64,000 bases of DNA. Source: Raja brachyura (taxonomy: Eukaryota). Under the pieces are notes generated by a model. The model was not told the DNA's origin. It made no database searches and saw only the letters and a program-made list of their open reading frames with translations. This document shows, in pieces, positions 25,281 to 29,276 of the stretch. A program made the translations under genes and the position numbers. The stretch is taken from contig OY740813.1 of the NCBI GenBank assembly GCA_963514005.1, positions 22,320,001 to 22,384,000 on the forward strand, written 5' to 3'. Every line of letters starts with the position of its first letter. Positions within the stretch are counted from its first letter, which is position 1.

Positions 25281-26124
25281 TGGTTGCAATGAATCTTGAT
25301 GTGTTCTTGCATTCTGAAATCACTCACTAAACGTCTTACACAACTCCTGATTCTCATGTAAAGTAAATTACTTGAGTAAATAATCAACATACTCTTTTTG
25401 GCACGAGTTGAATGTCAACACAGACCCCCAAGAAAAACCCTTGCACCTCTTCAAATAGGTTTAACACAACATTCAAAAGATGGCGCCTCTTGATAATTTA
25501 GTGTTGCACTAAGCTGTCAACCTACATTACGTGCTCTAGTCAAGACAAATGCCACACGAGGCCAGTTGAAACGGTTTATAATAAAATAGAATTGTTGACT
25601 TTGGATGCACTGTAAATTGTTGGAGCAAGTATTCCTTTTGTTTTATAGTCCAACCACATGGCCAAGAAAGCACACCAGCACATATTTTTTCCTCATAAGG
25701 CTAAGGAAATTCGGCATGCCTCCAAAGACACTTACCAATTTCTACAGATGCACAATGGAAAGAATCCTATCTGGGTACAGCACAGCTTGGTTCGCAACTG
25801 CTCTGCCCAACTCCACAGGGAATTGCAGTGAGATGTGAATGTAGCCCAGTCCCTCACGCAGACCAGTCACCCTCACCATTGACTCCACCTACACTTCATA
25901 CCGCCTAGCCAATAGGGAAAGCAGCCAATGTAATCAATTTTACTTCGGAGTCACGTGAGCGACTACGTGAAGACCCCGCCAGCACGCATGCGCGACATAT
26001 CGTCGAACGCATTGCGGAAGCGACAGTCGGGCGTAGGTTTAAAAACCTACTGAAGGTAAGTCTTACCATTCTGGTGAGCGTGGCGACTCGGTGTTCTTTT
26101 TTTTTCAGCAACGGGGAAAGCACC

Positions 26125-27325
26125 ATGGAGTCGCAAAAATCCAGGAGAGCAGTGGCAAAAACCGCTGCTGTGGAAAGCAGCCAGCAGCGTGCCGTCTCTC
26201 CAGAGCTGCAGGTGCTGCCAGCAGCTGCCGACTTCTCGCCGCAACAGACCGCAGGTGTGCCGCGGTCCGCCGGCAAAACCACCCGGAAGTCGGACAGGAC
26301 CGTTGACTCGGCTGGGTCCGGACCTGACCACACCCCGTTCGCGGATAGCGACGGCGGGCGTCTTTCCCGCAATCCCTCCAGCGTGACCTGCTTATGCAGG
26401 GGCAGAGTCACGCTGTGTCTCCTCGCAGACCCACAACAGCATCCTATCAAGGACTGCCAAAGTCTCACCCTCTTCGCAAGGGAGTATTAGGGGTCAGAGC
26501 TGGGCTGACCCTGAAGAAGGGGCAATTGCTGAAGACTTACCTGTGTCAGGGGTGCCAGAAGAGTTGTTGGGCATGGTTAATAAACATGCTGTACCAACCC
26601 AGAAAGGACTGCCTATACATCCAAAGCTGGCAGCCAGTATTAATTACATGGCTACAAACCAACTGCAGGAGCAAGCCATAAACAACACGGCAGAGAAATA
26701 CCTTGCTCCAGAGAACTGCATATCTCTTAATGTACCAGCAGTCAACAACCCCATCTGGGGCAACTTGAGCCCCTCTATAAGGAGCAAGGAGGTGAAACTC
26801 CAGAGAATCCTTAAACTGCTGGCTGCTGGTATCACAGCAGTAACCAGAACAGCTGATGGGGTTGAGATGCCTGAAGAGCTACAAGATGCTCTAGCACTCC
26901 TGTGTAATACTCAGTTTGAGATTAACAGTTACAGGAAGAGCATCATCAAGCCTGCACTCAATCCCAAATTTGTGGGATTATGCAGGACTAGTAGCACACA
27001 GCCACCAACTTTGCTGTTTGGGGACAACCTCCCGAAGCAGGTGAAAGACCTGGATGAGGAGGCCAAGGCTATAGGCCTGATCAAGGTGCCAAACACCTCT
27101 AAAACCCATTATCAGCAACGGCAGCACCCCTACACATCCACCAGACATCGGTACAACTAAAGACCATCTGGTGGTGAAAGCTCGAAGGCCGGCCCACCTG
27201 CTCAGCAGTCTTTTTTAGACCATGGCCCAGTCCGGCCTTCTTGGAAAATGCGCCAACCCCACAACGCAGCAACACAATACCAGAAGAAACAAGGGCAGAG
27301 ACAACCAATACAACACCGGCGGTAA
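26125..27325 (+). pseudogene. DIRS gag-like ORF1, disrupted
   Basis: Starts at caccATGG (26125), frameshifts near 26490-26540 into ORF 26543-27160 (PENCISLNVPAVNNPIW...RSKEVKLQ). Past the TAA at 27158 the same frame stays open to TAA 27323-27325, 2 nt before the pol ATG. Confidence 0.75.
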
Positions 27326-27327
27326 CC

Positions 27328-29276
27328 ATGGAAGTAGATGGGTCTGGTTGCCTCAAAAACATTGCATGCCTAGATTCATCAACGGTTGGTGGACGGTTGC
27401 ACTTGTTTCATCATGTGTGGAGCATTTTTACCTCTGATCCTTACATACTCGGAAGTATTCAAAATTGGTTACAATTGGTTGGAAGGGTTACAAAATTGAA
27501 TTTGTATACGAATTCCCCATCCCAGTTCAGCATACGCCCAGCCGGAAGTTCATACTTTCACAAAAAGAGAGAACAGGAGGCCATGCTGAACTATTAAGAC
27601 TAAATGCAAAAGGGGTAATTGAGAAGACAATCAGAGAATCTCAAGAGTTCGTATCAAATATATTTACAAAAAACAAAAAAGATGGTGGTTGCCGCATCAT
27701 TATAGATTTGACCGAACTAAATACAGTTCAGTTCAGTATGCCCATTTCAAAATGGACACGTTTGTCACAGCCAAACAGCTAATTTCTGATAGGTACTACA
27801 TGGCTTGCATCGATCTAAAAGATGCATACTATTCAGTACCAATACACAAGGATCATCGTAAATACCTGAAATTTGTCTGGATGGGACAGCTATGGCAGTA
27901 TAAGGCCTTACCCAATGGGTTGGCATCAGCACCCAGGCCGTTTACAAAATTGTTAAAACCAGCTTTAGCATACTTAAGGAAACATAACCATATTGTCATG
28001 GCTTACCTTGATGATATTCTCATTGTAGGTGAGAATTTGGAATGGCTACATTGGCAGTATCAGCCACAAAACATCTTTTTCAAAAGATGGGATTTATCAT
28101 ACATCCAGATAAATCAAAATTGAAACCCTCCACTACCATGGATTATTTGGGGTTCACTATCGACTCTGTTCAAATGTCTATCACCTTGCCACCAAACAAA
28201 GTGACTTGACGGAAGCATGTAAAAGCCTCGCTGGCAACAGGGAACCATCCATTCGGCAAGTAGCCAGAGTGATTGGGAAACTAGTGGCTGCATTTCCAGC
28301 AGCACAATTTGGACCACTCCATTACCAAAACCTGCAAAGAGCAAAAATTCTAGCTCTCAAAAATCATGCAGGCCATTTCGATATGAAACTACCAGGGAAA
28401 GCTAAATTAGAATTAAACTGGTGGATAGAAAATACTCAGCATTGTTCTAACCCCATCACTATCATGAATCCCTCGGTTACATTACAGACTGATGCCAGTG
28501 CTAAAGGTTGGGAAGCAACTAATACTACCATAAGTTGTGGTGGCAGATGGAGTGCACAAGAATTAACCCTGTTCAAAGCACTATGGATTAATTACCTAGA
28601 AATGCTGGGAGCATTTCATGGACTCAGGGCCTATTGCTCAGATATGCACCAGTTGCATGTACGGTTACAAATTGATAATACCACAGTGGTGGCCTATATT
28701 AATCATATGGGTGGAATAAAGTCGATATCATGTGATGAATTGGCTAATAATATCTGGCACTGGTGTCTGGATAGAGAGATTTGGATCTCAGCCACTTACC
28801 TTCCAGGTAAACTAAATACAGTGGCAGACACCAGGTCATGTAAATTCAACGACAACATTGAATGGATGTTGGATCAGAAAGTGTTTACAGATATTATAGA
28901 ACGGTATGGGACACCAGATATCGACCTTTTTGCATCCAGACTAAATCACCAATTACCAACATATGTTGCTTGGGAACCAGACCCGGGGGCAGCAGCGATG
29001 GATGCTTTCTCGCTGCATTGGGGGGATTTGTTTTGCTATGCATTTCCCCCCTTCTGCATCATCAGTCGGGTCTTACAAAAAATTAAACAAGACTCCACAA
29101 CGGGTGTTTTGGTTGTTCCCGACTGGCCTACCCAACCATGGTTCCCAGCAGTACTAAAGATGGCCGCAGAACCCTGCATTCGGATCAACAAATGGCCGAG
29201 CTTATTGGTACACCCTGCGACAGGGGAAAGTCATCTGTGCCATGATTGAATGAACCTATTGATTTGCAGATTCTGA
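27328..29276 (+). pseudogene. DIRS pol: reverse transcriptase, RNase H and methyltransferase-like domain, frameshifted
   Basis: ORF fragments carry VGGRL..F...W, GYKIEF, KKDGGCRIIIDL, IDLKDAYYSVPI, LPNGLASAPRPFTK and YLDD (RT); TDAS, INYLE, DNTT and N..AD (RNase H); DLFAS...YAFPPF (MT-like). Short local duplications near 27463-27490 and 27724-27735 break the frame. Confidence 0.93.

Follow-up and report, generated by a model that had tools for sequence, protein, structure and literature searches.

How a recombinase ORF that lacks a start codon could be translated is the question raised by a DIRS1-like retrotransposon in Raja brachyura. The window analyzed here is a stretch of 64,000 nucleotides, in which the element, decayed and with ATT...ATT ends, occupies 25937..30673 (+); frameshifts and stops break all three ORFs (gag, pol and recombinase) of this copy. 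The translation of the overlapping, often start-less ORFs of DIRS elements is unsettled, and one published proposal, made for the recombinase of the related Ngaro group, is frameshifting from pol (Poulter and Butler, 2015, as quoted in the accessible text of PMC13003380). Comparison with relatives of the window element suggests another route, in which a DIRS1-like family likely expresses its three ORFs by one -1 frameshift and one alternative splice, a reading given a probability of about 0.7 at the level of the group. The parts of the element are as follows:

25937..25998 (+), left terminus and left inverted repeat, from repeat comparison within the window
26053..26108 (+), consensus donor and pyrimidine-rich AG of the 5' leader, unconserved in relatives and assigned no role
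26125..27325 (+), gag-like ORF1, broken in the window copy and ending in TAA at 27323-27325, matched by an ORF1 profile built from relatives (E 8e-52)
27211..27217 (+), gag-frame slippery heptamer T TTT TTA, predicted from the comparison of relatives to direct a -1 frameshift into pol
27218..27333 (+), pol-frame linker from heptamer to donor, with an ATG at 27328, predicted to be common to Gag-Pol and Gag-recombinase
27331..27339 (+), predicted phase-0 donor GAA^GTAGAT, +11 nt from the first base of the gag stop and weak in the window copy
27178..29276 (+), pol frame (reverse transcriptase, RNase H region and Dam-like methyltransferase), broken in the window copy
29052..29065 (+), rival phase-0 acceptor, followed in the window copy by recombinase-frame stops at 29084 and 29243
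29259..29269 (+), predicted phase-0 acceptor TTGATTTGCAG, within pol codons C-R, with the S-W-R motif position 63 nt further on
29270..30241 (+), start-less tyrosine recombinase ORF, likewise broken in the window copy
30399..30511 (+), internal complementary region, its overlapping halves sharing the AAT at 30433-30435
30566..30673 (+), right-hand inverted repeat and terminus

The pol of the window copy matches the Pfam family RVT_1 (reverse transcriptase; E 1.9e-12), and the Dam-like domain at its end matches Pfam Dam at E 0.002 with 18.3 bits, under the cut-off of 28.1. Several homologues carry PF05869. The recombinase pieces of the window on their own matched no Pfam family. They are 88% identical to the protein P0121, which passes Phage_integrase, and through this homologue the window enzyme is classed as a tyrosine recombinase, not a DDE integrase. 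The nearest named homologues are from skates, at 65-66% identity. The element has inverted terminal repeats, its internal complementary region contains a 3-bp junction, and no split direct repeats of the Ngaro or PAT kind were found, the termini being inverted and the element having no long direct repeat within it. The ATT ends and the AAT junction overlap match the DIRS1 tabulation in the accessible part of PMC3266345.

Additional observations concern the termini and the surroundings of the element. The 5' leader holds two short palindromes (26027-26044 and 26055-26068), the second of which would sequester the donor located there. In the right terminus there is a donor-like GGTAAGT (30646-30652), its complement lying in the internal complementary region (30469-30475), and GGTAAG or GTAAGT occurs within 450 nt after the recombinase stop in 7 of 18 relatives, two control windows giving 0 of 18. 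In each of the four sequencing runs compared out of 11 (X1, X3, X5 and X7), contigs cover the termini (25850-26013 and 30278-30750) tens of times more deeply than the interior, which hints at abundant short non-autonomous derivatives. X1, X3 and X5, first taken for RNA, share the terminus-heavy depth profile of the presumed DNA run X7 and are probably DNA. Among the 15 joints listed out of 63, there is no predicted junction, a result that counts neither for nor against the splice, and the 40 variant rows listed out of 1205 include no change at the splice dinucleotides. Other remnants in the window lie at 32924-33737 (+), which we take to resemble a Tc1/mariner transposase, and at 38649-39119 (+), presumably resembling a LINE reverse transcriptase.

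Relatives were collected with a pol alignment query that yielded 99 loci, the metagenome part being the best 80 of 556, and these loci form 72 families at 85% DNA identity. The discovery set consists of the 42 families with a single intact pol ORF and a single recombinase ORF, and the hold-out set of one locus from each of the remaining 30 families. Since the best loci are only about 47-49% identical to the pol query, the tests address the group rather than the window family. Several loci (L083-L091, L095 and L099) are DIRS elements in contigs binned as Sedimenticola genomes, most likely through contamination from animal hosts.

An earlier note on this DNA had described three non-overlapping ORFs. 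This description does not hold, as gag overlaps the pol frame (open from 27178) and the end of pol at 29276 overlaps the recombinase frame (which opens at 29246). At 27158, where the window copy has a gag-frame stop, most contigs from three of the four sequencing runs show another reading, and gag thus continues to its TAA at 27323-27325. Among the intact families, pol is in the -1 frame relative to gag in all 35 that are usable, these being the 42 minus three with gag and pol in one frame and four with gag broken or cut. Within the gag/pol overlap, 31 of the 35 carry a gag-frame heptamer that strictly fits X XXY YYZ; the other two phases yield 9 and 3, and eight slid windows 1-16. In the hold-out set, the gag-frame heptamer is present in 15 of 19. 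Nine types make up the 35 hits (TTTTTTA 15, AAAAAAC 7, GGGTTTT 4, TTTAAAC 4 and five single types), and among the four families without a strict heptamer, TTTTTTG stands in three, and the fourth has AAAAAAC shortly before a stop. The exceptions with gag and pol in one frame are L040, L055 and L086, the last of which also has no phase-0 donor; this arrangement could reflect copy-specific slips or another expression scheme.

The pyrimidine-rich TCTTTTTTAG at 27209-27218, previously interpreted as a splice acceptor ahead of pol, is in fact a -1 slippery heptamer inside the gag codons S-F-L-D. In the window copy, which was checked separately as its gag is broken, T TTT TTA stands at 27211 in the gag frame with an open linker behind it. 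Across the relatives, what is conserved at this position is slipperiness and phase rather than AG, which most of the heptamers lack. The RNA 3' of the heptamer in relatives has a mean folding z of -1.3, with 20 of 31 below -1 (against single-base shuffles, and without pseudoknots), and that of the window folds no better than shuffles (z +0.57). The gag-to-pol heptamer is likely a -1 programmed frameshift site.

Just behind the gag stop there is a predicted splice donor. On ad hoc, rough consensus weights, used for donors (maximum 9) and acceptors alike, a phase-0 donor scoring at least 6.5 lies no more than 150 nt upstream of the conserved G-R-L motif in 34 of 42 families, compared with 5 and 1 of 42 in the other phases and 0-2 in ten slid windows; in the hold-out set, it is present in 15 of 19. 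In all 33 families with a usable gag and a donor of at least 5.5, it lies 5-44 nt past the first base of the gag stop. The V-S pairs in this stretch are coded GTR and AGY in 23 of 32 cases, in contrast to 4 of 147 in the rest of pol. Exceptions are the 6 of 42 families in which the best donor is in phase 1, and L014, L041 and L086, which have no good phase-0 donor. The window clade reads E/K/M-V-G at this position, and its GT at 27334 is in phase 0 at the expected distance with a score of only 3.5 out of 9, the nearby phase-0 GTs at 27322 and 27385 scoring 4.5 and 5.0.

At the other end of the predicted intron, the recombinase frame overlaps pol and, in 41 of the 42 intact families, stands at -1 to it. 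The serine of F-P-P-F-S is coded AGY in 32 of 36, creating a pyrimidine tract with a phase-0 YAG, compared with at most 7 at 18 other serine columns, counts that are to be read knowing that the families share ancestry and that serine AGY codons change slowly. In the 32 AG families, 311 recombinase-frame stops fall in the 300 nt before the AG and only 2 after it, and the frame is open from the AG in 31 of them, as opposed to 1 of 10 families without the AG. In ten families, the closing stop of the recombinase frame is the acceptor's own TAG. Each of the ten families without the ancestral AG, a state found on five separate branches of a quick tree, has a later phase-0 YAG; the frame is closed beyond the ancestral position in nine, and a phase-blind search gives a best site in phase 0 in eight. 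The hold-out set includes AG with an open frame in 12 of 15 and no AG with a closed frame in 6 of 8. The branch-point motif YTRAY shows no enrichment (12 of 32, compared with 2-19 in slid windows). A candidate TCAG acceptor in the pol codons L-S-G was dropped, since it is out of phase and TCC GG stands there in many families.

In the window clade, the predicted acceptor is the TGCAG of the C-R codons, ending at 29269. These two residues are kept in 50 of 51 P-P-F-C proteins, largely from one clade, compared with 6 of 34 P-P-F-S proteins. The site at 29269 scores below the phase-0 site at 29065, after which the window copy has two stops before the recombinase begins, and that site remains a rival acceptor. 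The join 27333^29270, suggested earlier, is in frame and would remove an intron of 1936 nt, and the position and phase of both its donor at the start of pol and its acceptor at the start of the recombinase are conserved across families. As the exact junction of the window family, it is moderately favored. Of the three junctions that had been proposed, this pol-skipping one survived the comparison with the 72 families, and the other two, 26055^26109 and 26055^27219, were overturned, gaining no support from the relatives.

The conservation in relatives thus lends good support to the predicted pol-skipping splice, and together with the heptamer, it outlines how the ORFs may be expressed. Unspliced RNA would yield Gag and, via the -1 frameshift, Gag-Pol. 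Pol-skipped RNA, formed here by 27333^29270, would lose almost all of pol. As it would keep gag, its stop and the heptamer, it would be translated into Gag and, when ribosomes shift at that heptamer, into Gag-linker-recombinase. The splice would in this way swap which enzyme hangs behind the frameshift, and the Gag tag might, speculatively, bring the recombinase into the particle. It is fairly probable that such a "splice-swapped frameshift" is widespread in the animal DIRS group: one gag site would feed Pol or recombinase depending on pol splicing, and the integrating enzyme would be a Gag fusion made from an RNA that could not be copied as a full element.

Gene models offer a supporting line of evidence. 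Three RefSeq proteins, two from Diadema representing one family (XP_071483612.1, from Diadema antillarum, and XP_071502116.1) and one from Haliotis rubra (XP_046546323.1), in a set of 299 recombinase proteins, hold gag and recombinase without pol, joined through the linker at the predicted residue. All three run through the linker in the pol frame, where F-F-R is the heptamer read in that frame, and enter the recombinase 21 or 93 amino acids ahead of S-W-R, the distances expected from the two kinds of acceptor. A further 23 proteins of the set join pol to recombinase at varied places, and the RefSeq joins therefore count as supporting only. The recombinase proteins found to have their N-terminus in common with a pol protein were all gene models that include the pol interior, and an ESM Atlas search with P0260 returned no cluster bearing on the join.

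The model put forward in the earlier note derived gag, pol and recombinase from three spliced RNAs that share the 5' leader donor, with the pol ATG donated to the recombinase. The motifs on which it drew are present: AAG^GTAAGT with its GT at 26056, the AG ending at 26108, the gag ATG at 26125, TCTTTTTTAG at 27209-27218, ATG GAA GTAGAT at 27328-27339 and TTGATTTGCAG ending at 29269. The leader donor is a perfect consensus (9/9), and the base after TTTTTTA is G in 10 of 15 cases (T in 5), as an acceptor would have it. Strong donors before gag occur in just 3 of 28 relatives, however, the same as in controls (1-4 of 28), and most heptamers at the site of the second proposed acceptor carry no AG. 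The ATG at 27222, which is present in the third frame, would follow that acceptor out of frame, and the first intron does measure 53 nt. This length is under the usual vertebrate minimum. The full model has very little chance of being correct. The donation of the pol ATG is not general, since a pol-frame ATG precedes the donor in only 8 of 33 families, which makes it likely that the recombinase is produced by frameshifting, as Gag-linker-recombinase, and not from a donated ATG. In the window lineage, donation could occur, given that P0001 likewise begins M-E-V. This rival retains the same splice and has ribosomes of this lineage restart at the ATG two bases past the gag stop (TAA CC ATG, 27323-27330), producing a free M-E-recombinase and a free Pol. 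L005, with an ATG directly before its donor, agrees with such a restart, but 25 of the 33 families have no such ATG and the window retains its in-frame heptamer and open linker, making the restart unlikely.

Two other rivals dispense with the splice. In one, a second -1 frameshift from pol would produce the recombinase, as proposed for Ngaro-like elements, and the nearly universal overlap in the -1 frame (41 of 42) is what this would predict. Yet a pol-frame heptamer in the open overlap is found in just 5 of 40 families and not in the window, in ten families the acceptor's own TAG closes the frame, and the conserved donor would be left unexplained; the idea can be given scarcely any credence. 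In the other, the recombinase would start from its own AUG on an internally initiated RNA, the splice-like motifs being by-products of protein conservation. An in-frame ATG at least 20 codons before S-W-R exists in 23 of 41 families and the F-P-P-F codons are pyrimidine-rich anyway, but 10 of the 41 lack an in-frame ATG up to the end of S-W-R, such ATGs show no enrichment (TGN is preceded by A in 32 of 116, compared with 240 of 771), and synonymous codon choice follows the splice consensus, leaving this reading very improbable.

If true, the scheme of one frameshift and one splice would account for the expression of recombinase ORFs that have no start codon, in those DIRS elements that lack the long ORF overlap. 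It makes base-exact predictions for dozens of families from marine animals and probably fish, namely a single junction, two transframe proteins and a tyrosine recombinase fused to Gag. The acceptor would be hidden in a conserved motif of the methyltransferase domain and would move between sites. The scheme also bears on the annotation of these ORFs and on the form in which a working recombinase should be produced for biochemical studies.

The element itself is of a known kind. DIRS1-like elements without long ORF overlap have the same gag, pol (RT/RNase H and MT, the last a weak match in the window copy) and recombinase, along with inverted repeats, an internal complementary region, ATT ends and an AAT junction (accessible text of Piednoel, 2011, PMC3266345). 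That accessible text describes the ORF layout, with long overlaps in half of 28 elements, and the terms splicing, intron and translation do not appear in it; the frameshift-plus-splice scheme is what is added here (PMC3266345). At least 13 of 150 recombinase representatives are ORFs of 670-1030 amino acids (P0295, P0298, P0313, P0315, P0325, P0335, P0337, P0344, P0360, P0367, P0375, P0378 and P0383) whose long N-terminus looks like off-frame pol, the known long-overlap class, and retention of the donor and acceptor in them would show which scheme is older. A full-text literature search found no frameshift-plus-splice scheme for DIRS in the accessible portions of PMC7192593, PMC9341512, bioRxiv 2026.05.21.726589, PMC4495291, PMC13003380, PMC9210276, PMC3266345, PMC6681497 and PMC3783388, and mention of slippery or splice sites may exist in the work of Goodwin and Poulter and in Repbase notes. 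The expression scheme, for which conservation gives strong support, is probably unreported for an element of this known kind.

In Ngaro-like elements, the recombinase ORF likewise lies in the -1 frame and overlaps the pol end (accessible text of PMC13003380). The overlap described here differs in that it has no heptamer in most families and contains a splice acceptor, and the termini are of the DIRS type instead of split direct repeats. Retroviruses and Ty3/gypsy elements carry X XXY YYZ heptamers in the gag/pol overlap, including the U UUU UUA of the HIV-1 type. Retroviral env is expressed by a splice that removes both gag and pol, and it has its own start. In DIRS1-like elements, by contrast, the predicted donor lies after the gag stop and gag would be kept, and the last ORF would therefore still depend on the gag frameshift. 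Subgenomic gag splicing of the Copia/Ty1 type yields Gag alone, and the spliced pol RNA of foamy viruses yields free Pol. In both of these systems, an intron likewise sets the ratios of retroelement proteins, but neither swaps the second enzyme behind a frameshift, as is predicted for the DIRS1-like group.
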